In this document: one piece after another, positions 27,340 through 64,000 of the stretch | Layout of the letters: every line of letters begins with the position of its first letter | Numbering within the stretch: position 1 is the stretch's first letter | Assembly: GCA_008632985.1 (NCBI GenBank) | Contig: QPGO01000045.1 | Location: 1 to 64,000, forward strand | DNA length: 64,000 nucleotides | Source: Psammoneis japonica | Lineage: Eukaryota | Direction of reading: 5' to 3' | Made by a program: the position numbers and the translations under genes | The notes under the pieces: model-generated | Databases searched by the model: none | What the model was told of the DNA's origin: nothing | Seen by the model: the letters and a program-made list of their open reading frames with translations, nothing else

Positions 27340-28168
27340 GCTAACGTCTTGATGGCCATTAAAGTCTTCTAGGACTGCTGAATCATGAATCATTGCACGC
27401 AAACTTGTAACGCCTGCTCCAAGGAGTCACACTCATAGTCTACTGAGTTCTTCTCCAAACTGAGCATGCAGACGGCCTTGTCCTGGCCAAGTACGGCCAA
27501 GTAAAAAGGCAGTAGCATTTCCGGAAGAAGCAAGTCTTCAACTTGTTTGACTCTTCGCTCTCTTTCCTGTTGCCACGAGGATATAGACATGTGGATTACG
27601 ATTTCTACTGTAGGGCTTTATCCTCATCACAGACTGAAACAGCCTATTGAGCTCTTCTTCAAACTGTTCGTGGGGGCGACTCAGACGCCCCTTGTAGCTG
27701 ATGTACACCTTGGATTGGTCGTGGCAAAGTGCGTGTATCGTCTGCGCCAATGCACAACGCTAACGTCTTGATGGCCACTTACTGTAAGTCTTCTAGGACA
27801 GCTGAATCATGAATCATTGCACGAAAACTTCTAACGCCTGCCCCAAGGAGATACACTCAAAGTCTACTGAGTTCATCTTCCAAACTAAATGCAGACGGCC
27901 TTGTCCTGGCCAAGTACGGCCAAGTAAAAAGGCAGTAGCATCTAAGTCTTCAACTTGTTTGACTCTTCGCTCTCATTCCTGTTGCCACGAGGATATAGAC
28001 AAGTGGATTACGATTTCTACTGAAGGGCTTTATCCTCATCACAGACTCAAACAGCCTATTGAGCTCTTCTTCAAACTGTTCGTGGGGGCGAGTCAGACGC
28101 CCCTTGTAGCTGATGTACACCTTGGATTGGTCGTGGCAAAGTGCGTGTATCGTCTGCGCCAATGCACA
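27340..28168. repeat. Tandem duplication (about 415 bp x2) of the methyltransferase 3' end and 3' flank
   Basis: ctaacgtcttgatggcca...ctgcgccaatgcacaa occurs at about 27340-27757 and 27760-28168; ORFs 27538-27750 and 27950-28501 share a near-identical C-terminus. Confidence 0.9.
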
Positions 28169-31192: not shown

Positions 31193-31459
31193 GGTTCTCT
31201 CTAGCTCAACAAGGCTGTTTCGCAAGATTGATTGTATCAACACCAACAAAAATCAATAATCAAAATGGCGTTGATTGAATGAAAAATGAAAAATGAAGGG
31301 TTCGCAATGCAGAAAAAAGGCTGAAAGAGGCTGTTTTCGAGAACAGCCTAAATACACTAATTATCATATAAAATTTGATTTAGGCTAAAACATTAAATAA
31401 TAAATAGCTTTCTTTCTTCAACCACGTCGTGTCTATAAATAACGGAAAAGCCTTAATGT

Positions 31460-42559: not shown

Positions 42560-43880
42560 GTGTCATTGTATGCACTTCAACGCAAGTCTCATTCAATTTC
42601 ACGCAAAATGCCCCCCACCTTCTTTTGCAATTCCATTGCAAAGTCAACTCCTCAACAATGGGTGCAATCAATCACTGCGTTGCCCTCACTGTTGTAGCAG
42701 AGGAGCTTCAGGAAGTCAAGGGCTGACTCCTCAAGATTCTCATTGTCCCAAAAGGATTCCGTCAAATCTCTTTGTGTGCTTCACCCCTCTCTCATGGTGA
42801 GTGAGTTGCCAATCCAAACAAGCAATGACCACACTGTTGCAGGAAGCAGTCTGGCCTTCTTGGGTCTGGTCTTCTTTCAAAGCTGCAGAAATGCAGCTTT
42901 GACAAAAGCCTTGTTGTGCATCTGGACACGCAACTCAACACTGGACGGCAAGTGTGCAACTGTTCAAGCAAGAAGATTGCAGAGTTGACATCATCAGTCA
43001 GGAAGCAATTGTGGAGCCCTTCTCTTGTTTGCTTCATTGTTGTTTTTCATCGCTTTCTCTGCTTCTGTGTGCGGTTGTGGGGACGTGGGGCTGCACTGAC
43101 CACAGCAGAGCTTCTCAACTGCCAAGAGATCCAGCCATGGCTGTTGGGGGCACAGCCATCATTGCTGCTCTCCAAAAAGTCAAAAAATTGAGGTGGGACC
43201 ACTTCAGCTGCTCACAACTGAAATCACGAGTTCAGCCCAGCTGCTCGTGTTTTTGCGCAGCATGGCATGCACTTGCGCACACACCTGTCAGCAAATTCAT
43301 GCGCCATCCACTGTGTCCATGTGCATCAATGGTCAACAGCCTGCCCCTTCTAACCTTCTTTCCAAGATTCACCTGACAAGTGTCCAAGTCAAGCTCCTTG
43401 GTCATGACACGCCCCATTTGCGAGACTCCTCAACTGTTGCACCCACCAGTGGTGTCTTCCTGCCCCCCAGCGCTCAACCCATGATCATCTTGGTGCAGAG
43501 CGCAGAGCTGGGCACCATTTTCTCACACCTTTTTATTTGGCCATTCTAACAAGGCCTCTGCCTCTCCCCCCTGCCCTCCCCAGCCCCTGCCTTGGGCCAT
43601 TCCCTCTCACTTCTGCAAGAGCTCCCAACCAAGCTCCCTTCTCAGTGCGCCAATCTTTCCTCCTCTCTCCACCACTTGAGAATCTCTGCTCACTCCTTAA
43701 ATGTCAGCTCTCTCCCCACCATTTCAGGTCCTCCTCCTTTTCTTCTTCTCCTCGATCCTGGGCTGCCCAGCTCCTCAGTCTCAACATTGGCCTTGCCCTC
43801 TCCAATCACCCATCTCCGGCACCTGCCAGTCACCGCCGCCCGCCTCCGCCCTGCCACCACACGACACACCGCGAGCGCCT
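42560..43880. repeat. TpA-depleted degenerate repeat island
   Basis: About 7 TA in 1.3 kb by eye, TG/CA-rich, no credible ORF. Confidence 0.6.
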
Positions 43881-43942
43881 TTTGTATGCCTTGCCACCGC
43901 ACGCTACTTTGGACTTTCAACTTTCTCTCATAACATTCGCAC

Positions 43943-44861
43943 ATGACGAGCGGAGTTGGATCATCAAGCAACGACATGAAACAGCGAAGGCGAGTATGTC
44001 TTTTCGGCTTATCAGCCGACCCACCAACTTCAGACGGTGGACATGGGGGCATCGTGAAATCCCTTGCGAACGAAAGCTTTGATGAAGTGCGAATCATACC
44101 GGTGTATCAACACACTTTCTCGGTAAGGTTCATTCATTCGATGCGAAATTCCAAGGTGCTTTTTCTGACATTATGTTGCTCATAACCCCAAACTGTTTGT
44201 TTCAGGAAAAGAGAGACAGAATGGCATCATACAGAGACCGAGTTGAAATGTGTAGATTGGCGTTTGCTGGCATCCCCCACGTCACTGTGTCGGAGGTGGA
44301 GCGAACATGCTTTGAAAAGAAAGCTTCTGGCTTGTAAGTGAATATGCATTGTAGAACAATGATGAGGATCATGGATATAGAACTAATTCATGTACTCTTT
44401 CCTTTTGGTTGAATAACAATATTTTCCTGAAAAAAAGAAGCGATTGCGAAAAGGCATCCCTGCGAGTTGGTACAGCAGATTTGCTAGACATGCTCTTGGA
44501 GGAAGAACCGGAATCCGATTTTTATTTTGCGCTCGGAGCAGACACTTTTGTGGACTTGACGAGTTGGAAATGGAGGCGATCACGTGATGTGCTTGACTTG
44601 TTGCAAGGTCGATTCGTTGTTGTCTATCGAACTATGGAGGATCCAAAACGACAGGTTTCACTTGACGCAATCAAGAAGCAAGTAGCAAAAGTTGCCGAGC
44701 AATACCCGGGAAACCAAAGAATACTCTGCATTCCAGGCCTTGAAGCTGTATCATCCACCCAAGTGCGGGCATGTAAGAACGAGGCGTTGCTCCGAGAAAT
44801 GGTGGACGCCTCTGTGCTGTTGTACATACGAGAAAACAAGTTGTATGATTTCGAAGATTAG
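43943..44861 (+). CDS. Nicotinate/nicotinamide-nucleotide adenylyltransferase (NadD-like)
   Basis: VCLFGLSADPPT..GH, R.EMC.LAF, GTADLL, FALGADTF.DL..WKW, VSSTQVR, VLLYIRENKLY; introns from 44123 and 44334. Confidence 0.85.
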
Positions 44862-45263
44862 TTTCTGTTTTGACGTTGCCGGATTCGAGCGAGAAGGATT
44901 GAAAATGAAGAAATCTTGGTTGGCATGGACAAAAAATATCAGTGCACTAAAGGTCAAACGTGGAAGCGCCCTGCTACCTGGCTCATTTAGATCGTTTCCT
45001 TCCAAGGCCACGAGGCCGATGGTTTATTGCGATCAAGAGAATTTGCCCAAGGCACCACATTGTTACGAGTTACACCAGAACGCTTTGTTTCGACAAGAGT
45101 ATGTCGCGAGTGCCGTTTCTAATCAAAAACTAAATCATCAACGAAACCACCTCCGGTATGGAGAGCATTGTCGTTCTGGAGTAATTTGTCCGAAGAATGG
45201 GCAGGTCTATCTTTCTCGACGAGGAGGCACGTCGCGAGACTCGAGACGCGAACGAGATGATGA

Positions 45264-46380
45264 ATGAGCGGTCCTGCATCGGGGAGTACTAGTAGGGCTA
45301 GCGACACGAAACAGAGGAGGCGAGTATGTCTTTTTGGCTTATCGGCCGACCCACCAACTTCAGACGGTGGACATGGGGGCGCATCAACAAGGTTTATCTT
45401 TCTCGACGAGGAGGCATGTCGCGAGACTCGAGACGCGAACGAGATGATGAATGAGCGGCGCTGCATCGGAGAGTAGGGCTAGCGACATGAAACTGAGGAG
45501 GCGAGTATGTCTTTTCGGCTTATCGGCCGACCCACCAACTTCTGATGATGGACATGGGGGCGCATTGTCAAAGCTCTTGGAAACGAAAGTTTGATGAAGT
45601 GCCGATCCTACCTGTCTATCAACACACATTCGTTCGATGCGAAAGTTCCAAGGTGTTTTTTCTGCCAAAGTAGTGCTCACAGCCCCAAACTCATTTGTTT
45701 CAGAAAAAGAGAGACAGAATGGCACCATACAGAGACCGGCGTTTGATGTAACTGTTCGGAGGTGGAACGAACATGCTTTGAAAAGAAATCTTCTGGCTTG
45801 AAAGTGAATGCCGTATGCACTGTATCGTAAAACAACAATGGGTTCACAGATAGAAAAATACCTGGTGTGCTATTCCCTCCTGGTTGAATACCGGTACCAA
45901 TTCTTTTTTAATTTCGCGCTCTGAGCAGACACTTTCGTGGACTTGACGAGTTGGAAATGGAGGCGATCACGTGATGTTCTTGACGACTTGATGTAAGGTC
46001 GATTGGTTGTTATTCATAGAACTATGACGGCTCCAGAACGACAACTTTCCCTCTACGCAATCGAGAACAAGTAGCTTAAAAGTTGCCAAGAAACTCCCAG
46101 GAAATCAAAGAGTACTCTTCATACCCGGCCTTGAAGCTGTATTATCCACCCAAGCGCGGCATACAAGGACGAGGCTTTTCTCCGAGAAGTGGGGGGTGCC
46201 TCTGTGCTGTTGTACATACGAGAAACGGATGTAGGAACTCGATTCACGTTACTTTATTTGAGAGAGAAGGATCGACATCAAAGAAATCTTGGACGGTAGG
46301 CACAAAAAATATGAATGGACTAACGGTCAAACTTGGAAGCGCCCTGCTACTTGGGAAATTCAAATCATCTCCTCCAACAT
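45264..46380 (+). pseudogene. Two tandem degenerate copies of the NadD-like gene (exon-1 fragment 45264-45383; longer deleted copy about 45450-46380)
   Basis: ggcgagtatgtctttt-ggcttatc-gccgacccaccaactt repeated at about 43990, 45320 and 45500; later blocks match 44190-45000 with indels and stops. Confidence 0.85.
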
Positions 46381-47214
46381 CGCTATGGATAGATACATCA
46401 AAACTCTTTTTTCATCAAGAAGCCTGTCACGAGTGCCAATCCTAAGCACCCACAGACATTGCCGCAACATTTATGAAACCAGCTCCTGACCCGAAGAGGT
46501 GGCCATCGTATCCGTTGACCCTTTCGCAGTTGAGTGAGTGGACCTTTTGAAGTCGTTAATCAAAGACGTTCCTCTATGCATTTGCAATGCCGTCGCTGTT
46601 TTCACTCTTGTGGCTTGTGCACACACCCAATAGATCGGGTCAACGATTCCTAGTAGCTCCTTGCGAGAGCCATTCGATTGTCAGAATAAAAGGTCTATTC
46701 CTATTGACAATAAACTCCTCGATATCATCTAATGAGCCCAAGACAGCAGCTGCTGATAAGCCCGTTGCAAGGGCGCCTCCAATGGTCAAGAGTGAGTTGC
46801 AAACAAATTAAGAGTGGGTAACCACATTGTCATCCACGACGATGTTTTTCGTTTCAATCGGAAGAGCTAGTGACTCGACATTCTCTACAGACAGTAGGCC
46901 TAGACACATGCGCATTCTATTGTTGAACTATAGTCTTGCTAGCCATAGCATTACTCTTCTAACGGTACATGCACAACACCATAATGGCACCGCAGGCGAC
47001 TGGCCAAGACACGACAAAAGCATAAATTATAAATTTAGACTTCACCATGATGCTCGCGATTGCCCCAAAGCAGCAGCACAGAACTTGCACCCATGTCCAT
47101 TTTTTGGGAGAAGAACAAATTTTGCCACAGCGCAGGAAAGATCGAATGTCAAGGCAACCCAGCTGGCATCAGCAGACAGGGCAACCAGCTCATGCCTGCT
47201 GACAGTCATGAAGC

Positions 47215-47581
47215 TGCACTATGCTCGAAGAACGAGTGTAAACGAAAGTAGAATAGTGTACGAAAAGTGGAAATTATGAGATTAAATTTTGCTCTGTGAT
47301 TTTTGGTTTCTCCGAACGAGTTCTCAATGGCCTAAAGCTTCTGTACTGCTTCTACAGACAAAAGGCCTTTCGGAGAATATATTCGTGACAACAGATTGTC
47401 CGGATACGATTGCTATTGACACGTAAGATGTCAACATCGTCAATCGATCGTATTTGCAATTCTCGACATCCGATCAACTCTGTGTGATCGTTCTGTCCTT
47501 TGTACGCATCCACGACTGTGGTACGATTGACATATAAATAATATATAATCATAAATATGTATATAACAGTCGCATACTGCA
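47215..47581 (-). repeat. Gypsy 3' LTR (TpA largely retained)
   Basis: Gap-free alignment with 51575-51941. Confidence 0.95.
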
Positions 47582-50500
47582 TTCGCCTCCCTAATTGCAC
47601 ATTAGAGTCATTTGTAAGTGGATTATTCGACGGACATCGACAGTGTCAATAATGTCTCCACTTTCATTGTATTGTGCCATTAGCAATGACTGTTGTTGTT
47701 TTGTATAGGCAATATAGGGCCGTTCCAATTTCCGAATGTCTTTTGAGAGTGACATTGTTTGTTTCTCACTTAATGTGTATATATATAGCATTACGTCGAG
47801 TATTCTCATTGACGTTCTTGTTGATATGAACACAAGGACTAATTGTCCTGGAGTAAGTGTTTTTCCTGATATCGATTGTACATAGCATCGTGCCCAGCAC
47901 TTAATGTACGCTCTTAATTATGGCGTTCACTTACTCACTTGTGGATTTCATGTAGTTTGGCGGGCTTACTTTATATGCCACATTGCTCTGCTGCACTACC
48001 ACGTTTCATAAGTAATAATAAACGATGGTCAAAGATATTATGGCCATTTCGTCTTGATAATCAATCCTGTGATGGTTATGAATTCCATTATGGATTTTTT
48101 TTTTTGTACTTCAACCATCTATCAGTTGGATTTTAATCGTTATTTGGACGTTTCTTTCTGACATACCGGTGTTATTTTGTCATTCCGAAGGCACTGGTTT
48201 CGTGCACTAAGTGGATAAATGTCCATTTTTCTTTTCTTTTTCTAGATCTTTGGCACATCTCGTGTGTCGACATGATGTGTGTTTTAATGTCTTGCCTCGT
48301 ACATTGTACAATACAACCGTACGGGTGTTGTGAGATTGTCTTTTGCCAGTGTGAAGTGGATACGTATAATGTATACCAATCTGTCACTGTTTTTTTCTAA
48401 ATCGTCCTTTAAAAAGGCGATTTTATTCTTGTGACATGAGCATTTTTCGATCTCGCTCGCCTCCACGAAAAGTGTTCGTATGATATGTCGCGTCCGACAA
48501 TTTGGAGGGAATGTCTTTATCCCGTTTTAACGGTAGGACATTGTCGTAGGATTCAATTTTCTATAGTAAGTCGGCTGATCGCGTCTATCGCGACGATGTT
48601 CGCCTTGCCCTCGTTGTATTCTAATTCGGGACTGAAGTTGTCAACGTATGACTTTGTCCGTTGTGTCTTATGATCCGTATATGTATAAATCTGTTGGCCA
48701 AACAGTATATTTCGAAATTTTATAAGTGTTTTCACTATGGACAGAAGTTCTTTTTTCCGTTGTAACGTATAATATTGAAATCCGTGTATGATAACAATAT
48801 AGTTTTTGATTTGATACGCTCCATATTTTCGGAGACTTTTCGTTCCGTACTTGTACTTTTGCCGTTTGACCTTTATTGAGGTGAATTTGGCTAGTATTGT
48901 ACAGGAGATCGTTGAGACTACATGTCTCGATAATAGTAACGTATGACAACGAGATGTCGTAGTGTTCTTTACGTTTTTCTCGTGTTGCGATTGCTTGAAT
49001 CGCCTCCATTTTCTTTGTAATCGATTGCATGTCGTTACGTGTGGAAGTCTTGATAGTTTATTTCAAGTTAAATAGTGAAGGACTTTTGTTGTTAACCTTC
49101 TAAGCGACTGTTCTAGTCGTTTGAATGCCGTATTAAGCTGTCACTTGTGCAGGTGATATTTTGAAGTTACTTTTGTCAGGCACAAACGATCACACATGGT
49201 GGTTCTGACAACTTCAAACCTGTTGTGAGTTCACTCAAGTGTTGCACAAAAATATCTGGGGCTCTGTAGATTCTCATTGGAAGTCCACAGCACTCATTTT
49301 CTCCCCACGGCATGATTTTCGTGTGAGCACGACGTGTGCTTTTTTCATTTGACATGGTGGCATTCCATGTTTGAATCAAATGGATTGCATGTGTGAAACG
49401 TTCTTGCTTCAACAGCATTTCCTGAATATTGGGTAAAGGACACACCACCTGCATGAACCTTACACTGAGCTTCTGAGTGTCGGGTGCGGTCGAACTCGAC
49501 CTGTTTTCTTCAGACAATGAGTCTCAGAGCGACTTGTTCAGAGCAATTTCATTCTCAAGACTTCAATCTTTCATGACAGGTCAAACTCCTTTTGATTGGA
49601 CGCCTCCAAAGACTGTGATAGGAGAAGGTTCTCACGCATCGTGGAATCGCGTCAGATTTTCCACGATGAGATCCACTGATGCTTCCCATGCACTCGTCTG
49701 AGGAACTTTTCAAAACGATTTCAACCTCTTAAGAAGAAGATTGAGTTGGTTGTGTTCATTTGGGTTAGATGCATCGCCGCAGTTGTCACTTGATTAAGAT
49801 TGATGGCGTGACAATGTGAGTCGAGGACCATTGGCTCCATTGTTGACTCCATTCACGGCGTCACATTTTTCAATGTGATCGGTTTTCAGCTTGAAAACAT
49901 CGGCATCGAAGAGTGTGCGAACATTCTTCATAAGGCAATTGCTTCTTCCCATTGGATTTCTTCATTTGCGCAGTCCAATGTGACTTGCAGGACTGGACAT
50001 TAAGTCGCGTCCCATGATCACATCATTTGAACCTGAAGAAAATTTGGTGTTTTCAACACATGCTGTTTGAACATCAGCGTGCCTTAAATTTCGCACAGTG
50101 AGAACTGAGTTCGGTGTTTGCTGTCAGTCGCAAAGAGCTCACCCTTGGTTTCCCAAGTTTTTGGTGGCGGATTCTTGTGTTCTCAACTTTCGCATGAATT
50201 TGCGCAAAATCATGGTTGACGATGTTCCGTTGTCGACAGGAACACGCAGATGCTTTTTTTTTTCTCTCCTTTCCCAAGGAAGTGTTCACACAAATGATGA
50301 CTCCTGGACCAGTGTGAATTGTTTTGCCTTTTTTCTAGGCTTCCCAATGTCCAGCAAAGCGTGCAATTCGTGAACAGACCAAAATTGTTCTTCGGATTCA
50401 GTCTGGATCATCCGATCAAATTGGCATTTTTCTTCACTGAGGGTGTCAGAATCTGATTCTTTGCCCTCATGCTCTTTTTCTTTGTTCAAGGAACTCGCTT

Positions 50501-51574
50501 TGAGCATTTTTTGAACCGCCTGATCAATCATGACGTTCATCTCTTTTTTTGCGAGCGGCATTTTCGTTGTCGCGACGCGACCGCGTGCGATTGCCATTTG
50601 AACGGCGCATTTTTGGGTCTCTTTCAGAGTCACCCTTGCACTCTTTTGCTGGCTCATTTTTAGAATGGCTTCAATCCGTGATGTGGGTGTTCTTTTTTCA
50701 AAGATGAGACCTTGCATTCACTTTGGATTGTTCTGGCACCATGTGGGAGACCATTTTTGGAACCAAATTTGGAGCCTTTTTTATTTTGGAACCAACTGCG
50801 CTGTCAGAGCCTGAGTTGACATGTTTTTTCGTCACGGACGTCATGAACGACCTTCAGATGACTCAAAACTTAATCATCTCATCAAGGATGAGTTGCAATG
50901 GTTGATTGTTTTGGACAGTAGACTGATGCTGCCATCCTTGCGGTGCGAGTGATGGCTGATAAATCAGCGCTCGGTTTCCCGCTAGATTCGACTTAGAATC
51001 CATCTGAGGGTCGTGTGGACTCTCATCGTTGACCTCTTGGGTCTGACAGAGGCTTTCTCGCTGTCAAGCAGCTCTGGTTTCTTCAGGTCGTCTCGAAAAT
51101 AATTTCCCTGATTCTGAAGTGCATTTCCTCGGAGGACATGAGTTGTGAGACGCTTGAGGCACTTTCCAACGATTCCCTCTTGCTCCTTGGACTCGAGGAT
51201 CATCGACTCGGTCTCAAAAAACTCTCCAATGGTCTCTCCTTGCATGGTAGACGCATTTCTCGGATCTGATCGACTCGGAACTTGCGTTCTCTGCAACCAT
51301 GACTTGGTGTAGATTTTTTGACAATGCGGTGCACTTGAGAGCCCTTGATCCTTGGGTGCTTGGAACAGACCGCATTGGAGCGAATCCTCTTGTCTGGCAG
51401 ACGAAAAACAGCGTTCCATCTTGAGGTGCTGCTCGGCTTGAGCTTCTTCCGCTCGGAAATCGATTCCAGCAGAACTGACGCGATTCGTTCCTGTTCACAG
51501 AAGAATTTGCAAAGGCACATTGGTTAAAATTTTCATTTTCCGTGCTTTTTGCCTTCTGTGGTGTGTGTGCACAA

Positions 51575-51941
51575 TGCACCATGCTCGAAGAACGAGTGCA
51601 AACGAAAGTAGAACAGTGTGCGAAAAGTGGAAATTATGAGATTAAATTTTGCTCTGTGATTTTTGGTTTCTCCGAACGAGTTCTCAATGGCCTAAAGCTT
51701 CTGCACTGCTTCTACAGACAAAAGGCCTTTCGGAGAACATGTTCGTGACAACAGATTGTCCGGATGCGATTGCCATTGACACGCAAGATGTCAACATCGT
51801 CAATCGATCGCGTTTGCAATTCTCGACATCCGATCAACTCTGTGTGATCGTTCTGTCCTTTGTGCGCATCCACGACTGTGGTGCGATTGACATGTGAACA
51901 ACATGTGATCACAAACATGCACACAACAGTCGCACACTGCA
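51575..51941 (-). repeat. Gypsy 5' LTR (TpA hypermutated)
   Basis: Identical to 47215-47581 except at TpA sites. Confidence 0.95.
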
Positions 51942-53295
51942 AAGCAGCACCAGCAGCACACAACACCAGCTGTGCCAATGATTGCACAAAGGGAGCATTG
52001 CATTCCTTGTGGGGTTGCCCGGTGGGGCCATCTGTGTGGCAGTCTCAAAAAAAGCAAAAAACTCATCAGATGCCCCCCACAACATTCAGCAACCAAGTCA
52101 GACCATTTGGAAGGCCAACAGCACTGCACAATTTTGGTGACTCAGTCAGCTCAAGAATGCTGCAGTCATTTGGAGTGACATGCTTTCTCTGCTGCTGTGG
52201 CAACAACCATTGTTTGTTGCTGCTTCCACCATCTCTGTTTGCTCTTGCAGCTCAAGAATTCAGGCTTGCATTGTGGCACAAAACAAGGTCATTTCAAATG
52301 TCTTTTTGTTGAAAGAGACACCCGCCTGCATCAGTGAAAGAGAGTTCAAGGACCATGCTTCATCTCAGAGGCTTGCACCACTGTCTTGAGAAAATCACAC
52401 CTGTCCTCCAGAGACAACAAAAGGGAGAGGAGCACAGAATTTCTTAAATTTCTGCTGGCAGTTGCTCACTGCAGCCCACTTCTGGCTGGCACATTGGCAA
52501 AGTCATGTGTGGTGCTGCTGCTGGCCAGCACTTTTGTGTGCCAAGATTTTCCAAAGTTTTGCTCCACCACCTCAAGGACCATGCACCAATCCAATGGTGC
52601 AACTCTGCAGCAACAAAAGAGCCTGTTGACTTTTTTGCTGTGCCAAGCACCTGGGCTGTGTCTTGCACAACCAGAGTTTGTTGTGGGTGCACTGACAACA
52701 CTTCTTGCAGAGAGCAGCCAGAGAAGCTGGGGCAAGAAGCAGAGATGAGCACTGGCATTTTTTGACACTCTCCTGGGGAAAGAGAGGCCCACCCAGGCTC
52801 CACTTCTGTCTGCAACTCATTGACACAACTTCATTGACTGTGGATTGGCAAGCATGGTGGGGAGGCCCCTGTGTTGATGAAAAGACTGCAGGCTCTTCCT
52901 CTTCTAGAAAAAGGACAAGGCTGGTGCGCACTTTTTTTCAAGACTTTCAAATGTCGAAAATCATTTTTCACATTGAAGAACATGCCCAGTCAAACAAAGC
53001 AAGTCTTGACATTGATGCTGGAAGCACGTGCAACACTCCACCAAAGAGGGACACTTTTTGCAATTTGGGGCACAAGACAGTGCCCAAGTTTGGCTTCTCC
53101 TCCTGCAAGAAGCCTTTGTTGGAGCGCTGCAGCTTGCTGGTCTAGCTGGCACATGTTTGGCTTCAGAAACAACCCCGAACTCACCGCGTGTGTCTCACAA
53201 GCACATTCCCAATGCTGTTGACCACCATTGCCATGTCAACCGGGTGAAAAAGCCAAAAAAGTGAGCACAAGACCCACAACACAATCCAAGCTGTG

Positions 53296-53740
53296 TGCAG
53301 CATGCATGCAGACAAAAGGTTATTTTGTCACGCCCTTTGTGACATTTAAAGGCTGCAACACGTCGCCGTGATGCATCAACTCTCATCAGTGGCTGCATGT
53401 TGCACTCCTCCCCATGTGTCACGCGTCCATGCGGCTCTTTGCTGACGTGCACTGACACTGCACGGTTTTGGTGGAACAGTGTGGGTGCGTGCGAAGGAAC
53501 ACACAGAACTGCACAGAGTTTTGCGCGTTCGACAGTGATCAACGTTGCTGCAGACAACTCCCACTCAGGGTTTCGAACCCCTGGCCTCCTGCCCAATGGT
53601 TGCGATGAACCACTCCGCTGTGAATTCACAACGCAGCATGCGTGCAGACAAAAGGTTATTTTGTCACGCCCTTTGTGACATTTAAAGGCTGCAACACGTC
53701 GCCGTGATGCATTGACTCTCATCAGTGGCTGCATGTTGCA
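53296..53740 (-). mobile_element. TRIM-like miniature LTR element
   Basis: 109-bp direct repeats 53296-53404 and 53632-53740 with inverted termini, TSD TGTG (53292-53295, 53741-53744), PPT ggggaggag (53405-53413, minus). Confidence 0.8.
53558..53625 (-). other. tRNA-like Pol III A/B-box segment inside the TRIM
   Basis: Minus strand cAGCGGAGTGG (53610-53620; A box TRGCNNAGYGG with T>C) and GGTTCGAAACC (53569-53579; B box), 30 bp apart. Confidence 0.55.
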
Positions 53741-54459
53741 TGTGAGTGCAAATTCACCACATTGTCTGCATTGTCAGCGCATCTTTGCACCGCAACACTG
53801 TTTGTCTGTCCTGTGACAAAAACCACCTTTGACCCTTGATGTTCCAACACACTCCTTTGCATGAGCCGTCAGTTGGTTGGCCTCGTGCACATCAAGTGCA
53901 GTGCCAGGAGGATGACACTTGGAAATCATGCCACCCAACACCACTTTGACTGCTTCATTGATTCAAAAGCCCACATCATCTGACTCTGCCAACAAATGAT
54001 CACTGTCAGGACAATCCTTTGTCACATGTCCAACCTCATCACATTTCTGGCATTTGATTTGCGTTTTCTTGTTCTGGGCAAAACTTGCAACCTCAGGTTT
54101 CTTGTTGTTCCCAAATGTGTCCAACACCTGCAATGCCTCCCCTTGGTCACATTGGGGTGATCATCACCCCTGACAGAAATTGAAGGCAAATGGCAAGAAT
54201 TCAAACAACAACTCCTCACTGCTGTCTAAACAGCAGATGAGTCTCCGCTCAGAGACCGTTGCAGGAGCCGAAAGACGTGCAAGTCGGCACAATCGGGCTG
54301 CTGTTGTCATTCTTGTGAGCCTTGTGGCTCGAAAGCAAACTACATCGCGCGTGAACGCGCGGAACTAAAGCACACAAAACTGTGCGCGGTAAACTAAACA
54401 GCGCGCGATGCTTCGCGCGCATCCAAATCCTGTTCAAATCCTGTCACTCCCCAGTTTGC

Positions 54460-57400
54460 TTGAGGAGCCACAGAAACAGATTCGACTTCGGATGGAATGA
54501 AGTTCCAGAACATGAGGGGGCGGAGAAGGTCCCAGATTTGGGAGCAACCCCAATGCTTGCTGAGAATGTCAGCAGGGTTGCGGGAGCCTTCGATGAAGTG
54601 GAACTCAAGGCAACCAGAGGCAATTGCCTCACGCACACGGTGGAACGACAGTGCGGTGTGTCGCTTGTGTAACTTGGAGTGCGGGATGGTGGCACTGTCT
54701 ACAACCGACTTGTTGTCACCGAACATGTAACTGACATTGCGGATCGGGACGCCAAGGTGGCGCAGGGTGATGCGCAGGTCGACAATCTGCTCAACACAAT
54801 TCCTTGCGGCAACAAATTCAGATCCAGGTTGCAGTCTCCACGGTGGCTTGTTTCTTGGAGAACCAATCAGCTGGGAATTTGTTGAGGAAGTGGAGCATTC
54901 CCATGACAGAGCGTCCGGTGAGCATGCAATGGCACAAGTTTGCATCGACGTAGTGGGTGGCAGTGATGAACTTGCCAAGGGGCGGTGGAGCGTCCTTCGG
55001 GATCATCTCTTCTGCTTCACCATGCACGGAATGCATCCATTCATAGGCCGGAGCAGGGAGATCCGAATGGTCGGGCTCTTCCGTGCGAACGCGGAGAGCA
55101 CCGTGTCGCATCTTGGAGAGGCACCCACAGACGCGTTTGGCACGATCCAAGTGGCCTTGACGGGGCGCAGCTCGGAAGCTAGAGAGTGACATGACAGCCG
55201 TGGCAATGTCAATTCGACCAAGGGACACTGCCCATTGGAGTGAACCAACAAGAGACTGGAACTTGTGAATGCCATCGGGTCCCAGCAGTTTGGAAGTGTC
55301 CAGTTCGGGGTGGTCACCCTTCTCTAGAGGTGACAGGGCGTTGGTGGCAGGTTTCTCCCCAAACAGTCGGGCGCAACTGTCGACCATGCGCTCGATGTAC
55401 TTGCGCGGAGACAGGCACAAGGTTCCATCGGGGTCCCGGGAAAAGTCGCAACCCAGATGGAACTCAATGGGTCCCGCACCCTTGAGCTTGAACTTGTGCT
55501 TTTCCGTGAGAGTGTCGACGAAAGATTGAGGGTCCTTCATGGCAATGGCGAGGTCATCCACATAAACGGCAATGTGTTCACAGTGGTCGCCGTTCCTGCG
55601 CATCCAAATGTCGGGTTCGGCGCGGCAGGGGAAGAAGCCTTCAGCTCGCAGGCAGTCGGCGAAGCGCTCGTGCCAGCGGAGACCGGAGCTGCGCAGTCCA
55701 TGCAGTGCCTTGTGGATGACAAGGATGTGTCCTTCGAGTTTGCCAAATTCGGGTCCAGCTACAATGTAAAGCTTCTCCTTGGTGGTGGCTTCAAGGTGGG
55801 CATTGCCAATGTCGGTGGCCCATGTCTCCAGCTCGTTGAGTTCGGCCAGGAAAATCATCAGCCGAAGGCCACGGAGGGAGACCACTCCGGAGTAGACACT
55901 GTCGACAGGTACGTCCGTGAGGTGCCCGTCGGCTACGAGTCGTGCCTTGTGGCGACCGTCGTGTTTCACGTCGCACACCAGGTGCACTCGGATCTTCTTG
56001 TGTCCCGCAGGAGGAGTGGAAGACTTGAAGGGCCCGCAGTCATGGAAGACTTCGTATTCGTCGAGTTGGTCCATCTCGAGATTAGTTGCGTCTCCCCACT
56101 TGCGGTTGCCGTTGCGTTCGTCTAGTGACATGGCGTGTTTGTAGTTCCGGGGAACTTCGCATCCGTACTTGTAGCGAGGTGCAGTGCGGAAGGAGCGAAG
56201 CTTGGCTTGGTTGGCCATGCGAAATAGCTTCTTTTGGCGCCTCGCGATGGTGCGGAACCGCTTCCAGCCATCCGTGTCGAGGAGTCCGTTCTCTCGTGCA
56301 TAGATGGCACAGGTGACGGGGTCGTCCTTGGCGATGATGGCAAGAGGCTCGGACGTGATCTCCCCACTTTCCCATTCAAGCATGATGTTGTAGCTTGAGC
56401 CTTTCCAGGTTGGGTCGTGAGGCTTCAGAGGTCCTTCGTGTGACACGATGCGTCGAAATTTCCAAACAGTGGTGTCTTCGTCTTCTTGCTCAATGTGATT
56501 CATGATGTCATTGCAGGCAAGGACTTCCTCGTATTCGTCATTGTTGACAGAGCAGACGAACTTAGTGAGCTCGGGATTGCCGTTCACTTTCCATTCGTGG
56601 TCTTCGACGGCCTTGACGATGCGAGCTCTGTGGCGTTGTCCGTCCTCTTGTGGCTGCATGAGGAAGGTACGTCCAATGATGTCTTGCGGATCGAAAACTG
56701 GCATCTTGGGTGTCCTGATCTCCCCATCAGGAGAATCGACGGGGTTGTCGTCATGGCGAGATTTGATGATGGGTTCAGGTGGCTCCCCATCAGGAGGATC
56801 AAGACGCAGGTTTCGAACGGCAGGATCGGGGGTAGCGGAGCGAACGTTGGACCGGCAGAGGATCTTCTGAGTCTCGTCAGATAGAATCTTGAAGGTCATC
56901 TGGTGGCCGACGTGCTCAGCAATGCCAACGAAGCGTCCACGCAACTCACGGGATTCGGACGGCCAATCAGAGTCATCGAGGTGGAAGTGCACTGGTTCCC
57001 ACCAGTGAAAGCGAAGCAATGGGCTGATGTCCGGGGTGGATCCAGTGAGAGTCTCGAGGGGCGTGCGCCAGTGGAGACGTGGGGACGCTGTGTGGTTGAG
57101 CATGAAGCACACATGCATGAGCGCCAGCAGCCATGTGTGGGCGGGCGAACCAAAACGGTCCATGACAGTGTTCGCCATGCGCTTCACGGTCTGGTGTCGA
57201 CGCTCGGCAAAGTTTTGGTGTTGCTGGTGAGGCTCACTTTGCCAGCTGGAGATGAAGAGGGCGCGTAGGATCCCGAGCACTTTGTTGCTGATCTCAACTT
57301 GAGCACGGTCGCTAATGAGTTTGGATGGGGCACCACGTTCACGGATCTGATCCTCGAGTGTGTTGACAAACTCTTTGTCCGTCTCAGTGCCGTAGACGTC

Positions 57401-60061
57401 AGTGACGGTAGACTCGGTGCCAACAAACAGTTGGGCGCTGGTGCAACCAGAGTCGACGGCCGGGGTGTCGGCACAAACGGTGTCAGTGGCGACAGGCTCG
57501 TTGCGGCGGTGCACATTAAGGGCGGGGTTGGGTGATTTGTGGGCCTTGCGAAGGTGTGCACCGGCGGGCATGCGGGCGTACTGCGTGGTGCAGTCAAAAG
57601 TACGACGGACCGTGTCGGCAGGTAGGAAGCCAAAGCAAGGCCGAAGAGACTCGAAGGGGGGGTCCTTGGGCTGTACAGTGCGCTCCGGAGGTGGAACGTC
57701 ATCGCCCTGGGGGTCAATCGCATGTAGATGACACTCGGAGAACACGTCGTCGTTCGGAATGAGGTGATCATCGAGGGCGGACGCGTGATCGGCAGACAAG
57801 GAAGCGGACAAGATGGTCTCGTTGACAACGACACGGTGACGGCAGTTGCCGCACTCGTCAAATGGGTTGGCGGTGGGATCGTCCTGCAGGTCAGAGATCG
57901 CGTCGTGCCACTGGTCGTCGTCAGTGACAGAGTGATCGAGGACGGAAGGGTCCCATGTGTCATCACCGGTGAGGATGACATGGGGCAGGGTGTCCCATTC
58001 GGCGTCAGTGCAAGGTCGCATGGCAACATGAGGCAGGCCAGCCTTGATGTCAATGGGGATGACACAGCCATCAGGAGTGGCAACACGTTGCAAGCCGTTG
58101 GGCACCTTGACAGAGCGATCGTTGACATCCTGTTTGTGCCATTCGAGCTGGCCGCAGGAATGGATGGTCTTGCCCTTTCCCGTGCATGCGCACTGATGGA
58201 GGATGGCGATGACGGGACCACGCTGGGTCTCAATGACGGCACCAGCGGTGACAATGGGGATGTCCACCAATTGGTGATCGTCAATGCCCTGAACGTCGAC
58301 TTGGCGAGAGGTGCGTGCAATGACGCGAACGTCGTCGCCAGCAATGCCGCCGTTGGCCCCACGATCGACTAGAGCGCCAGTGCGTGTGGAGCGATGAGCA
58401 GAGGCAGAGTAAATGACATTGTGGTTGTCAACGCGGCGGCAAGTGCGGCCGTTAAGTTCTGTGTCATCTGCAGGAGCTGGCGGGGTAGAGGAAGCGGCGG
58501 ATGGCCCCGGTCGACTGGCATTGGGGGCTTGGTTAGGTGACAACAGACGTTGCAGATCACCGGGTGGCAGTGGCTTGCACTTGGTGAGGTGCGCCAGGAT
58601 GGGATTGTCCGAAGTGGCGTCCACATGTGCAGCGGAGTCACCACAGTCAGCAGGAGTCGTGTTGGATGAGTTGACATCACCGTCGCTCCCAAGGTGTTGG
58701 TCGTGAAGGTTGGCCGTAACAGACTCATGGCAGTTGCTGGCTCGCGGGTTGCGGGGAGGCGGACAAGAATGCTCAAGGATGATCGCCTTGGAGGAATCGG
58801 GCAACGAATCCCAGAGCCGTTGGTGGTCGGGAGGGAGACGTCTCCATTGGACACCGGTGAGGCTGGGACCGCGGGTGCAGGCAGCATTGGCTTGAAGGAC
58901 GTCAACGTCGCTGTCAATGTCGTAGAACACATCGTCGGACGGTTCCTCGGAGCAGACGTCGTGTGCGCATGTGGCGCGTCGGGGAGCTCTAGGTGTCGTC
59001 TTGGGTTGAAACGTGCTGTCGCACTGAGCTGCCGCAGAGAGGAGCAAGCCACAGCATTGATCGCATGTGAGGCTCTTGCCACTCTGTGTACGATGCTGAT
59101 CAGCTTGGTTCTTGACAGCACGGAGTTCCTCGACAGGGTGCACGGCATTCTCGAGCATGACGCGCTTCTGTCCTTCAGAGAAGTGGTCACTGGCGGGGAT
59201 GAGTGCCTCGCACTTGCGCAACTGATCTTGCCAATGAAGGATGAACCCGTGGGTCGGACCTTTCCAAGTGCCATCACCAAGACGTGCGGTGGTGAGGTGC
59301 GTGAGCAGGGTGGAGGACTCGACAGATGCGCGGGTGGAGGCAAGCGCGTGCTCAGACAAGGAGCGGCAGACGGTCTGTGCGTCAGAAGACCCCACATTGT
59401 CGCGAATGAGAGCCTTGCCCTTGTCGGTGAGAAGGATGCGTTCGAAGACGGCGAACATGTGCTTTTGCTGTTCAGCAAAGAGCAGTTTGTCTTCGGGGCT
59501 GGTCGGTTTGTACGACGAGTCTAGAATGCACTCGACGTCTTGGGCACGGGCTTGTGCCACAAGTGAGGTGTGCCAAGTGTGCCACTGCTTGTCAGATTTG
59601 AGAGCTGTGAAAGCAGTGGGATCACGCTTGATGCCTCGCTTGAAGTCTCGCACCAGGTCGCGTGCCTTGGTCGGGTTGGTGACATGTGGAGGTGCAAGGG
59701 GTGAGCTGCCGATGGACACAGAAGACATGTGGTCGGGGCTGAGGCGGTGGGCAAGGAACTCGTCATGCGTGAACAAAGAGGAGTCGTTGGCAACGTCAAG
59801 ACCTTTGTGTGCTTTGACAATGTGCAGACTGACCAGTGCTGCTAACATGTTCTTATAACCACGGGGCAAAGGGATTGCATTGGTGCCGTTGTCGCACTCA
59901 AGCGAGTCGATTTGGGACGGCATGAACGTGAACAGTTCCTGATGTGAGTCCGTGCCGTCTTGGGCCAAAGCCAAACGAAGAGGACTCCCAGCACCTTGGG
60001 CAAGCACGGTTCCAACAACATGCTCGAAACCATCGGTTTGTTGCTGACGAGTGAGAACCAT
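54460..60061 (-). pseudogene. Copia gag-pol polyprotein, Tyr-depleted, frameshifted near 54825
   Basis: LVDRGANG (protease), ISDRAQVE / QNFAERR (integrase), RHKARLVA, YVDDL (RT), SEFVAAR, GDNKSVV, NPADILSK (RNase H, second frame). Confidence 0.92.
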
Positions 60062-60990
60062 GGCAGACAAAAGTGGTGTCAGGACAATCAATTCTGGTTG
60101 GGAAGCGAAGGTAGACTCGAAACTTGGGTGAGAATGGACTTGACTTGAAATGGACTTGACTTGAAATCTTGAACTATCTTAAAATCAGAAGTCGCCGGGC
60201 TTTGTCATCCCGTTCGTTGTTGAGTGCTAAACTTCCCATCCGGTCCGTAGAGTTGTGCCGGCACGTCCGAACCCGCAGCCAGCGGCACTTTGGGTTGCTC
60301 ACGAGCGGAGTAGCGGGTTGTAAACCCCTGCAGGTAAGCTGACTAGAGGTGGACAAGACCCCCGAACCGTTCTTGTTTTTATGTCGGTTGGATTTCCCGA
60401 TCAGGCTGGCCAGTTGACGCAGGCGTTGGGCGCTGTGGACGAACGAACAAACGCGGGAAAGCACCCTCGCCCCAACGTAGGCTGCAATCACGGCCACTTG
60501 CTCTCACAGTCATCCTCGTGGACCTAGCAGAACTGTAGAGCACCAGTGGTCCGGGGTAGATCAGGTGCAATGGACTCGGTGTGCTTGTAGAGTGGCAGCA
60601 AAACCGTAGTCCGAAGAGTGGATAAAGGTTCTTGGCCGTGAAGATATGCATGTATATATATATATGTCTTCAGCGACTAAGATCCTTGAATGTGTAGGGT
60701 TCTTGACCGTTAACCGAGGAATAGGTATATCAAGGGATGTTGATCAAGGATAGACTTGGATATGACCGTTGAATATAAGTCTTCAGCGACCAAAGGTAGT
60801 ATAATCAATCCAGATATCCAGCGGTAAGGAGACTTGACGGTGACGTTAACTTCCTGCCGATGCCCTGGTATTGAATGCGCGTAGACTTGCCGATGTATGT
60901 AGAATATATACGGAGGTCCACGTAGAATTGAAATAGCGTCGTTGGTAAATCAACGACGACGATGGCGGTTGCTCAATGGGTTGACAATGA

Positions 60991-61005
60991 GCAAGACTGT
61001 TAATC
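60991..61005 (-). promoter_or_regulatory. Putative primer binding site complementary to a tRNA-Asn anticodon arm
   Basis: Plus strand gCAAGA CTGTTAA TC directly abuts the 5' LTR; it reads as anticodon stem, CT-GTT-AA loop and start of the 3' stem. Confidence 0.55.
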
Positions 61006-61286
61006 TGACAGAAAATGAAGGCAAATGGCAAGAATTCAAACAATAACTCCTTACTGCTGTCTAAATAGCAGATGAGTCTCCGCTCAGAGACCGTCACAGG
61101 AGCCGAAAGACGTGTAAGTCGGTATAATCGGGCTACTGTTATTATTCTTGTGAGCCTTGTGGCTCGAAAGCAAACTACATCGCGCGTGAACGCGCGGAAC
61201 TAAAGCACACAAAACTGTGCGCGGTAAACTAAACAGCGCGCGATACTTCGCGCGCATCCAAATCCTGTTCAAATCCTGTCAACCCC

Positions 61287-64000
61287 CCAGAGTGAACTGC
61301 TGATGTAAATCTTTCAAGACATGCCATCATTCATTGGCACACTCCTCCATTGGCACTGCCACTGACAACTTGTTTCTTTCTTTTTTCTGGGCATCATCAG
61401 CATCTTTGCTGAACCCATCTTCTTTCTTGGCAATCTCCCCCATGATGATTCTGCCACAGCACATTTCTGCCACCCCCTCAACAAAATGCTCAAGAGCTGA
61501 CGATTGAAACTGCCTTGAAGCACCTTTCCTCCTTCATCTTGATGAATGGTTTGCAGCCACTTCCAAGCCTTGGCCACCTGGACATGTGGGTTTGTCTTCT
61601 CACTTGCATCAAACAAGATCAACACGAGATTTTCTGGTGGTGCTGCCATGATGTTCTCCACTCCTTTGTGACTCTTGCAAACTCCCCACTCCTTCAATCT
61701 TGTGAGGATGAATGGCCTTGGCACATTGTCCCACAATTGTGCCAAATGCACTTGCCTTCTGGATCTTGCAGATCACATTCTGTTTCACACAGTGATCACA
61801 TTGCTTGTCCCAGATTGCCTTGCTCTTCTCCAATGTTGTGTCTCATGATGAAAGCTGCCTCTGACCCCAAAGTCCACAGCCTTTCCCAAGCAGACAGAGA
61901 GATCTGCCCCCATGCCACCCAGCAGCATTGGAGCTCTTTTCTTCAAAGAGAGCATCGCAGCTCAAAGAGCTCTGCAGCCCACTTCTGTTTTCTGCTTGTG
62001 ATCCAACCAACAAGGTCAAGCTCATCTCTGGCTCCACCAAAATGCTGCAAGCCTCTGTGAGTCTTTGATTGAGCCTCGCCCCATTCTTTGAAAGGGGGTG
62101 AGAGACCTCATTGGTGTGTTGGACTCAATGGAGCTCATCACTTGGGCTCAGCAGATTGGCTGCATGTGCCAAAAGGTTTGCTTTGGAGTCTGGATTTCAT
62201 GACTGAAAATTCTGGTTCAAGCCATCCCTGCACCTTGGCAGCCATTTCCAGCCCTGGCAGAGTGTTCTTCAACTCCACACTCTGCATCAAAGCATTGAAA
62301 TCTTCCAACATGGCCATGTTTCACATGGAATGACAAGTGCAATTTTTGCACAAGTTGCCATGGCAGTGTGCTGTGTGGTTGTTTTTGGCAACTTTTTTTA
62401 AGTTTGTGATTGCAGCAGTGGCACCAATTGACAACATGTGAAAAGGACATGATCAATGTGTGTCACAAAGCGCCAAAATGATGCACACTTTTTCCTGTTG
62501 AAATGGCCCTGTCATGCTGCACTCAAGATCTTTTTCTGTCTTCTTGTTGCACTGCAGAAAGTCTGTAAAATGTCATGGCTTTTGTTCAAAATTTATCCGC
62601 ACTGGATCAGATCCCTGTGTTCTTGACAAGGGCCGGTTGATTGTGGTTGAAGAGCCTTTCACAATTGTTGTGACATGTGAAGCAGGAAACAACACTGAAT
62701 GAAAATTGTTCTTGCAGTGCATGTCATCTTAACAAGATGATCTTTGTGCACACCAAGAGTGATTTCAACATGACTCAGTTTTTGTTTGCAATCAATGTGG
62801 CAGACAAAGCAGGAAACAATGGCAAACAAACCTTGTGACTTGCAAGGCTGTGTGCTGTTCACACAATCTGATTCTTGCACGCCACAATTTGTTTTTTTGG
62901 CACTGAGTCTGCTTTTGCTCCCTGTTTTTTCTTGTTCTTTCCTCCTTGCTTTGTTGGCTCTTCTGCCAGTGCTGCCATTGCCCTTTGCTGTCTGCACATG
63001 ACAAGCCATCATCAGACATCTCTTGAGCCAGAGAGCCAGTGCTGAGTTCCTCCATCACCGGTGCACCATGATGAGAAAATCAATGTTTTTGTTGAACAAC
63101 CACTTCCCACCTTGTTCATTGGGAAAGACACCTCCATTGTTTGTTGATTGAGGCTCTTGATTGCTGCCAGGAAGCAACAAAAAGGAGAGACAAGTGTGAG
63201 GGATTGTCATCAAGAAGGTGTGGGGGGACATGAATCTGTTGGTGCTTGAGCAAAGGAAATTGTTGAGAGGTCCTGGCACATCCAAAGAGGAGCATGAGGC
63301 AAATTGTCACTTGAGGAGCTGACAGGGGAGGGAGGTGCATTGCACAGGCCAAAATGGAAGAAAGAAAAGAGTGCTGAGGACACCATTGAAAATGTCTGCA
63401 GAGAGCACACTGGCCATTGTTGTCAGACATCTGACCAGGAGGACAGAGTGGGTTGCATTGCAACAGGGATGTGCCATTGTCGTCAGTGCATGACATTGGA
63501 GGATGAGTTGTGCAGTGTCCAATGGGAAAAAAGGACAAATGCAGCAGAGCAGAAATGGAGCAAAACAAAGGCAGAAAACTGAAGGGTGGAAAAAAGCAAA
63601 CAAATGAAGTTGTTGGCAAGTTTGACATTTGGACAGAATGAACATCATCATTCATGAGTTAAAAGCCAGCATGAGACAAAATTTGCATTTGTGCAAATTG
63701 AGTGTTGTGGTCACAATCATCAGCACAAATGTGAAAATTGTGACAATTGGTCAGTGCTCTTCTGATGGTCAAGCATGGAAACATGTCACAAACTAAAGTC
63801 AGACTGTGAGGCAGCTAAATCAGATCCTTGCAACACATCAACACCTGTGTAGACTGGTGCAAATGTGGTGGACACAATGCCGTTGTTGTTCTGTTGAGAT
63901 GGCTTTTAGAGCAGAGTGTTGAAATGGCTGAAGACAAGGTTGCAAGAACTTTGCATTTTTGACAACAATTGCTGAAGTCACCAATGATGAGTGCAACATT
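61287..64000. mobile_element. Older, heavily mutated repeat relic (right of the Copia insertion)
   Basis: No TA by eye in 61308-62398 and 62732-63659; very few CG; no intact ORF. Confidence 0.65.

Follow-up and report, generated by a model that had tools for sequence, protein, structure and literature searches.

Results

Two LTR retrotransposons share a tract poor in TpA

The DNA analysed here is a stretch of 64,000 nt from contig QPGO01000045.1 of Psammoneis japonica (positions 1-64,000, hereafter called the window), in which two long terminal repeat (LTR) retrotransposons on the minus strand, a Ty3/Gypsy-like element and a Ty1/Copia element, are partly covered by a tract of about 11 kb depleted in the dinucleotide TpA (Table 1). 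The LTR pairs of both elements were found by self-BLAST and then aligned pairwise. The Copia LTRs are 276 bp long with TG..CA ends and the insertion is flanked by a 5-bp target-site duplication (TSD), features that agree with the Ty1/Copia class. A Pfam RVT_2 domain is present in this element near the C-terminus (E 4e-26), and no Pfam integrase domain (rve) was detected in it at E <= 0.01. At the frameshift in its coding region, other genomic copies have an additional G or CG following position 54824. The Gypsy-like element has LTRs of 367 bp, also with TG..CA ends, and remnants of reverse transcriptase (RT) followed by RNase H were recognised within it by tblastn of distant homologues (best E 3e-11, 117 hits, mostly short). 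The Pfam RT_RNaseH match in this element reaches 23.6 bits (E 5.8e-5), which lies under the cut-off of 24.8, and tblastn with homologues gave no integrase match; the element is degenerate and probably non-autonomous. Given the matching TSDs (AAGC for the Gypsy-like element and ACCCC for the Copia element), each LTR pair represents one insertion.

TpA was measured by sliding windows, segment counts, maximum-likelihood change points and a two-state hidden Markov model (HMM), and is expressed either as the ratio of observed to expected dinucleotides (o/e) or as the TA share, defined as TA / (TA+CA+TG sites). TpA o/e amounts to 0.47 over the entire window and to 0.57 in its ordinary gene-bearing DNA (3.5-31 kb and 34-42.4 kb), where the TA share is 21-23%. 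Between 49174 and 60170, 94 TA were counted among 2106 TA/CA/TG sites, corresponding to a TA share of 4.5% as compared with 31-37% in the untouched parts of the two elements, and CpA and TpG are elevated in the same interval (o/e 1.3-2.0). The HMM recovered this interval as a single depleted tract and placed five depleted tracts across the window. Judged by TA share, the tract, referred to as young in what follows to set it apart from older islands around the elements, has lost ~83-85% of its TA.

A previous sequence-only reading of this DNA had described abundant TA in the 3' part of the Gypsy-like element and in the 5' untranslated region and LTR of the Copia element, with a (TA)n run in the latter, separated by roughly 11 kb of depletion that spans parts of both elements, and had noted TA-poor host DNA just outside each of them. 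Sliding-window profiles of TpA o/e, which had been proposed as a check, and the segment counts bear out this description: TpA o/e amounts to 0.86-0.87 over 47215-49175 and to 0.82-0.93 over 60151-61290, the (TA)n run is located at ~60655-60670 in the Copia leader, and the host flanks contain 0 TA at 47040-47214 and 10 TA (o/e 0.05) at 61291-64000.

Table 1. Coordinates of the elements, segments, edges and islands in the window (TpA o/e where determined for the feature).
Feature	Positions	Strand	TpA o/e	Remarks
TpA-depleted tract	49174-60170			Recovered by HMM, change points and profiles; CG o/e 0.80 overall
Left edge of tract	49139-49191 (support)			Best 49168-49174, inside the RT-like region of the Gypsy-like element
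Right edge of tract	60089-60311 (support)			Best 60170-60175, ~110 bp upstream of the Copia start codon (60063)
Ty3/Gypsy-like LTR element, degenerate	47215-51941	-		LTR pair; RT and RNase H remnants; TSD AAGC (47211-47214, 51942-51945)
Gypsy left (3') LTR, unmutated	47215-47581	-	0.86	30 TA, 0/30 hit
Gypsy internal, left of edge	47582-49175		0.87	
Gypsy internal, right of edge	49176-51574		0.14	
Gypsy right (5') LTR, mutated	51575-51941	-	0.18	5 TA left; 16 TA>CA, 10 TA>TG, one site became CG
Inter-element DNA	51942-54169		0.03-0.08	
Ty1/Copia element	54171-61281	-		LTRs 54171-54446 and 61006-61281; TSD ACCCC (54166-54170, 61282-61286)
Copia 3' LTR, mutated	54171-54446	-		11/16 ancestral TA lost
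Copia left LTR, segment count	~54170-54454		0.31	
Copia internal, left of edge	54455-60150		0.20	
Copia gag-pol coding region	54472-60063	-		Frameshift near 54825; many Tyr>Cys/His; YVDD kept
Copia leader and 5' LTR, essentially unmutated	60175-61281	-	0.82-0.93	1/16 LTR TA sites hit
Copia leader, segment count	60151-61004		0.93	
Copia right LTR, segment count	~61005-61290		0.82	
Older TA-free island left of Gypsy	47040-47214			175 bp, 0 TA; CG o/e 0.34
Older island between elements, single copy	51942-53100			2 TA; CG o/e 0.07; depth 65-72
High-copy repeat, no type assigned	~52908/53101-54170		0.08	CG o/e 0.51; summed depth 21,000-52,000
Older TA- and CG-free island right of Copia	61287-64000		0.05	CG o/e 0.08; continues past the window end

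Sister LTRs of the same insertion are unequally mutated

The LTR pair of the Gypsy-like element differs exclusively at TA sites. In 26/26 differences the outer (left) copy has TA and the inner copy has CA (16) or TG (10), with zero non-TA differences over the 367 bp; the outer and inner copies hold 30 and 5 TA and 21 and 22 CG respectively, and 0/30 of the TA sites are hit in the former as against 25/30 in the latter (p 5e-12). The Copia LTRs differ in 13 columns, ten of which have TA in the right copy versus CA or TG in the left copy. Two further columns make up one site where the right copy has CA and the left copy TG, for which the simplest reading is an ancestral TA hit once in each copy, and the last column is a transversion. 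The left and right Copia LTRs are hit at 11/16 and 1/16 sites respectively (p 6e-4) and have 21 CG each.

Since the two LTRs of an insertion are identical at landing and these are now asymmetric, mutation took place after integration and on DNA. The mutated portion is the 5' end of the Gypsy-like element but the 3' end and open reading frame (ORF) of the Copia element, both being on the minus strand. A layout that follows the chromosome rather than the structure of the elements is thereby supported, with opposite ends mutated and the sister LTRs hit at 0/30 and 1/16 sites, as the sequence-only reading had anticipated in proposing a chromosomal tract that ignores element boundaries. The degree of mutation is alike in the two elements (25/30 in Gypsy vs 11/16 in Copia, p 0.28), which fits one shared history.

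The same results bear on a possible ADAR- or APOBEC-like editing of element RNA or cDNA that would have preceded integration, an explanation that the earlier reading had already set aside. An A-to-G change with a 5' U/T neighbour resembles the ADAR preference according to the Discussion of Mettrop et al. (bioRxiv 10.64898/2026.01.13.699255), but editing prior to integration cannot make the LTRs of one insertion differ in this way over their whole length. Moreover, opposite element ends are affected, both strands are hit and single-copy DNA outside the elements is also TA-free, so that this explanation is hardly credible.

The change runs from TpA to TpG and CpA

The direction of the change was assessed on the Copia protein with a test set of 39 homologues (50-62% identical across the alignment), a column being considered conserved when the same residue occurs in >=80% of them. 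In the 38 columns with a conserved tyrosine, the Copia element has Y in 13, C in 12, H in 8, F in 4 and W in 1. Conserved histidines and cysteines are kept in 22/23 and 4/4 columns respectively, and the other residue types tested are kept in 83-100% of columns. Overall, compared with the homologues, tyrosine is reduced in the element (1.1% vs 3.9%) and histidine (5.0% vs 3.5%) and cysteine (2.6% vs 0.9%) are increased. The replacement of tyrosine by Cys or His at 20/38 columns therefore indicates the direction TA to TG or CA. Each single-transition reversion of the Copia sequence was also scored for restoring the homologue consensus. Reversions in TpA context did so in 45/336 cases (29/204 for A>G and 16/132 for T>C) as compared with 38/1917 in the other fourteen transition contexts (p 1.5e-17), and those in the direction of repeat-induced point mutation (RIP) restored it in 0/28 and 0/24 cases. 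TA has thus been converted to TG and to CA, and both strands are affected. Among the genomic copies, CA-versus-TG disagreement with the window occurs in at least five adjacent-pair sites, and at position 49575, in the Gypsy-like element, the 15/15 other contigs have TA where the window has TG.

The reverse direction would be a RIP-like C-to-T change at CpA/TpG which made the TA-rich parts out of a TA-poor original. The LTR pairs alone are symmetric as to direction, and the low GC content (38%) and many stop codons of the TA-rich Gypsy half would suit such a process. It is contradicted for Copia by the tyrosine and reversion tests, and the sites with CA versus TG between copies, the state of position 49575 and a TA o/e of 0.03-0.2, far under the host value of 0.57, also speak against it; the TA-rich part bears no RIP signature by the RIP indices either (TpA/ApT 0.76-0.79). 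A RIP-like origin is consequently regarded as highly improbable. In the Gypsy-like element, tyrosines compared by eye in an alignment of 25% identity, which carries little weight, appear lost on the mutated side and kept on the TA-rich side.

Control duplicates in ordinary DNA of the window gave TA-type substitutions in 1/22, 0/11, 12/81 and 10/57 cases. One control, a tandem duplication at 27339-28169 (~420 bp, 92% identical), has an ordinary substitution spectrum, as have the diverged repeats at 43972-46377 (74-91% identical) that lie beside an island at 42.6-43.9 kb. Within the Copia element, the region 56050-56400 keeps six consecutive conserved tyrosines and shows the highest residual TA density of the tract, partly because three of the six Tyr codons are in the resistant CTAC context.

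The left edge is abrupt and the right edge is softer

Change points were compared with 300 shuffles inside each element, and the support of the edges corresponds to 2-lnL intervals. Likelihood gains of 75.8 (left) and 50.1 (right) were obtained versus shuffled maxima of 9.9 and 7.9, and 0/300 shuffles reached the observed gain. At the left edge, the TA share drops from 37% to 5.5% within ~50 bp and without a gradient inside the tract. The tblastn RT alignment (49517-48774) spans this edge and, because the edge sits in the middle of the RT-like region, no native change in composition is expected there. The right edge is softer and less certain than the left one, being confounded by a native shift in TA between coding and non-coding DNA. 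Of the fairly sharp edges described in the earlier reading, the left one thus stands, with a width of at most ~50 bp, and the right one is to be qualified as lying near a native drop in TA. Mutations in the leader are further suggested by other contigs of the family with TA at 60528 (CA in the window) and 60548 (TG in the window), and the Copia leader is therefore not wholly untouched. Still, because of the 20/38 tyrosines lost and the LTR asymmetry of 11/16 vs 1/16, the mutational border of Copia must be located somewhere between the first Tyr>Cys (59895) and the 5' LTR.

It could be argued that the contrast at the right edge is mostly native and simply opposes a TA-poor ORF to a TA-rich leader and LTR. 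Metagenomic Copia relatives are in part consistent with this, since the unmutated loci L006 and L007 have a TA share of 0.18-0.19 in the ORF vs 0.28-0.34 upstream and L020 behaves likewise. Among 22 such loci, L002 (1-3516, 49% identical) is the only one that is TA-depleted: its ORF has a TA share of 0.042 from ~nt 800, its upstream part is TA-normal, its change point falls near its own ORF start and its tyrosines are kept in 11/12 cases, all of which favours a native contrast. Against it stand the replacement of 20/38 tyrosines by Cys or His in the present element, the loss of 11/16 TA in the 3' LTR as opposed to 1/16 in the 5' LTR, and the left edge inside the RT domain, where no native shift is expected. 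A mostly native right edge is therefore very unlikely.

Locus L002 was also considered as an independent mutational tract and was rejected as such, its conserved tyrosines being kept. It may represent an active lineage from whose silent sites TA has been lost, or simply a lineage with a TA-poor codon use.

Comparison with other genomic copies

Contigs from four runs (one sample, one study) were mapped to 46.5-62.5 kb, the differences between contigs and window being given for 40 of 663 differing places; single-copy DNA has a summed contig depth of ~60-70 in these data. Each of the four junctions between host DNA and element is crossed by contigs at single-copy depth (59-67), which differ from the window at 0-2 positions. 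The contig at the left Gypsy junction (46500-47241) shows 0 differences and has the first two TA sites of the LTR unmutated, and the one at the right Gypsy junction (51915-53323) carries the mutated LTR end. An unmutated left junction and a mutated right junction with one and the same TSD therefore imply a switch of state inside this Gypsy insertion. The summed depth of the flank bins matches that of a single contig, and no second allele of the other state was seen. A haplotype switch, named beforehand as a finding that would speak against a chromosomal tract, is accordingly not supported at the Gypsy ends, where one contig accounts for each flank.

Both families are highly repeated, with a summed depth of ~8,400-14,000 for the Gypsy family and 63,000-170,000 for the Copia family. 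This leaves room for an assembly artefact, in which mutated and unmutated copies would have been threaded together so as to create the internal edges, the more so as no listed contig spans 49170 or 60170 and every contig differs from the window at 48043 and 48427. The unique junction contigs and the matching TSD nevertheless demand a switch inside the Gypsy-like element, and an artefact of this kind is considered quite unlikely. The exact positions of the edges do rest on the assembly, because the listed contigs bridge neither of them and both families are very abundant.

Ectopic gene conversion was also weighed, whereby whole elements would have been mutated as repeat units and the outer 2.0 kb of Gypsy and 1.1 kb of Copia overwritten later on. 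The hundreds to >1000 copy-equivalents of both families could serve as donors, the converted tract would naturally end at the element end, and the low non-TA diversity of the families (transversion places 5-12 per type over 16 kb) makes clean LTRs compatible with such an event. Conversion requires, however, two independent and very recent events, one at each outer end, since these ends are spared (0/30 and 1/16), and it has to accommodate a Gypsy LTR pair without any non-TA difference. Gene conversion is consequently judged unlikely and, as the TSDs match, an unequal crossing-over of distinct copies is excluded.

Judged by summed contig depth, repetition is as high in the untouched parts, the sister LTRs among them, as it is in the mutated parts. 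Targeting directed by pairing, which the sequence-only reading had offered as one of two options, is thus disfavoured: equally repeated parts are spared and a clean sister LTR accompanies a saturated 367-bp LTR.

Rate, sequence context and two probable layers of decay

The rate at TA bases is at least ~180x background, as estimated from the Gypsy LTR pair with its lack of non-TA differences. TA sites of the LTRs that belong to the ATA/TAT class (A before or T after) are hit in 26/27 cases and those of other classes in 9/18 (p 4e-4), and across the tract the residual TA amounts to 2-8% of the ATA/TAT class vs 30-57% of the CTA/TAG class. With respect to strand, LTR sites overall show 23 CA vs 14 TG (p 0.19). 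An enrichment of coding-strand A>G in the 5' half of the Copia ORF (19:5 vs 10:11, p 0.035) and the Tyr>Cys:His ratio along that ORF (13:4 vs 4:10, p 0.012) are suggestive only.

CG is normal in the young tract (o/e 0.83-1.16) and the CG counts of the LTR pairs are essentially unchanged. The older islands have a CG o/e of 0.07-0.35, raised CA and TG, and nearly all TA gone. We infer two layers, that is a fast process specific for TA and a slow, separate decay of CpG, and the older flanking islands would be saturated fossils of the same TpA process. The CpG decay plausibly results from CG methylation of diatom transposons (PMC9998398). If the figures given for Bigelowiella natans in the main text of Mettrop et al. 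are extrapolated to this locus, a loss of 85% corresponds to ~1e5 generations and to ~4e-5 background changes/site, a value which, as an extrapolation only, is compatible with clean LTRs. The loss may have occurred by repeated rounds or by a continuous low rate, either of which fits.

DNA between and beside the elements

The inter-element DNA, the left flank of Gypsy and the right flank of Copia are alike in being TA-free and CG-poor, and for this reason both elements appear to have landed in one older island. The high-copy repeat between the elements holds a 108-bp direct repeat (53297-53404 and 53633-53740, 97% identity). No Pfam families were found in ORFs of the inter-element and flank DNA, and no tRNA genes were found within 44-64 kb. 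The single-copy contig at 51915-53323 departs from the window solely at positions 51985 and 51987, with TA in the contig and CA in the window at both, and thereby weakly hints at a recent or polymorphic process. A number of contigs with roughly single-copy depth connect 54130-54140 with 61285-61397, one of them with 30 other letters in between, and these could represent an allele or a paralogue of the island without Copia.

Elsewhere in the window, further TA-depleted and CG-poor islands lie between ordinary genes at 1476-3154, which includes an assembly gap of 568 N (1737-2304), at 31457-33600 and at 42571-43883. Their TA share is 1-2% and their CG o/e is 0.25-0.35, and none of the three matched the Copia or Gypsy proteins used. 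The host ORFs at 3500-42400 are all TA-normal and correspond by Pfam to a proteasome subunit, a Na/Pi cotransporter, a PHD finger protein, a DEAD/ResIII helicase, a protein kinase, a MutL/PMS-type mismatch repair protein and a WD40 protein. In a protein search, diatom and bolidophyte names were returned for the MutL/PMS-type ORF, its best named relatives being from Attheya, Thalassiosira and Skeletonema.

Discussion

The observations made on the two elements are best accounted for by an A:T-to-G:C hypermutation specific for TpA, which probably (with a rough probability of 0.65) acted on chromosomal DNA after both integrations, its reach being set by position in a domain of ~11 kb. In the simplest account, the adenine of 5'-TpA-3' would be deaminated on either strand to give TG or CA, and the enzyme would be a putative adenine deaminase. 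The domain would start abruptly in the RT region of the Gypsy-like element, continue through the Gypsy 5' LTR, the older island and the Copia 3' LTR and ORF, and stop near the start of this ORF; it could correspond to a putative domain of chromatin or silencing whose borders are stable. It is also conceivable that the guide is tied to read-through transcription, which would have to start downstream of the Copia promoter and run leftward.

Several points weigh against this interpretation. The TA-rich half of the Gypsy-like element has 8 stops in the RT frame and was therefore already non-functional, and the evidence for direction is weaker for Gypsy than for Copia. The lower TA of the ORF than of upstream DNA in Copia relatives, and the fact that neither 49170 nor 60170 is bridged among the contigs listed, have been mentioned above. 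In addition, the 2.2 kb between the elements were already saturated and are uninformative, and consequently one contiguous tract is not separable from two tracts that start at the inner ends of the elements. Lastly, mutation did not spread from the older island next to the Copia 5' LTR into this LTR, which puts a simple spreading model under strain.

To our knowledge, most known hypermutation defences are cytosine-based, such as RIP, AID/APOBEC and the loss of methylated CpG. RIP of Neurospora and other ascomycetes converts CpA to TpA, thereby raising TA/AT, and acts on both members of a duplication. The process at the present locus resembles it in that repeated or selfish sequences are hypermutated at the DNA level, by transitions specific for one dinucleotide, and transposons are killed. 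It differs from RIP by its opposite chemistry and direction, TpA being erased, by the mutation of one LTR while its sister is spared, and by an extent that does not follow duplication. ADAR, which is a metazoan enzyme, and APOBEC edit RNA or cDNA before integration and follow the structure of the element. Deaminase-type transitions, a 5' U/T preference (in the case of ADAR) and the inactivation of retroelements are shared with these systems, unlike the post-integration action on both strands that reaches non-element DNA here.

The closest parallel is the TpA hypermutation of integrated nucleocytoplasmic large DNA virus (NCLDV) and virophage DNA in B. natans, for which Mettrop et al. used mutation-accumulation lines. 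According to the main text of that preprint, 230/231 new mutations in NCLDV (186-kb) and virophage (25-kb) inserts are A>G or T>C at TpA, the rate is ~1000x background with 6e-7 per site per generation, TpA makes up 3.3% of dinucleotides and an ADAT2-like candidate is named. The hypermutable region is stated to reach ~21 kb past the annotated virus, and clusters poor in TpA and rich in CpA and TpG are reported elsewhere in the genome. As far as this text goes, both cases share the change of TpA to TpG/CpA, hence from AT to GC against the usual mutational bias, its restriction to discrete regions of selfish DNA (tens to hundreds of kb in B. natans), a rate far above background and borders that are not tied to annotation, as with the ~21 kb in B. 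natans. They differ in that B. natans is a chlorarachniophyte (Rhizaria) with viral inserts and a process that is live in the lines, whereas a diatom stramenopile with LTR retrotransposons and old repeat islands is concerned here, the process being deduced from fossils and the older islands being CpG-poor as well. The main text of the preprint describes no element-internal borders, no flanking-base preference and no diatoms; its supplements may hold data on context or borders.

CG methylation of transposable elements by DNMT5a is described for Phaeodactylum (PMC9998398). The older islands, with their CG o/e of 0.07-0.35 and raised CA/TG, are in keeping with methylated-CpG loss in diatom transposons so described. 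The normal CG of the young tract and the unchanged CG of the LTRs differ from such loss, which argues for a separate and slower layer.

Full-text literature searches found no report of TpA-erasing mutation in diatoms, and a DNA-level, TpA-specific A-to-G process is so far known from a single preprint of 2026 on an unrelated alga. What is new at the present locus is the geometry, namely one tract over two elements with borders inside both and a left edge of at most ~50 bp in an RT domain. Post-integration action, disregard of element borders, the sparing of sister repeats and a stop within ~50 bp argue for a positional guide, that is a domain, over pairing or the editing of RNA or cDNA, and the coordinates reported here are those at which chromatin, methylation and small-RNA maps should step. 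As to annotation, spurious ORFs of great length arise in every frame of TA-free DNA, where dead elements look intact.

Taken together, these findings tentatively suggest, as a possibility that goes well beyond the locus itself, that diatoms may possess an adenine-directed defence mutator for which a heritable domain of chromatin or silencing, rather than homology, would be the guide, with borders that can be as narrow as ~50 bp and divide a transposon. The loss of TA would then constitute a base-resolution fossil map of past heterochromatin borders, and the ATA/TAT preference would be the footprint of the enzyme.

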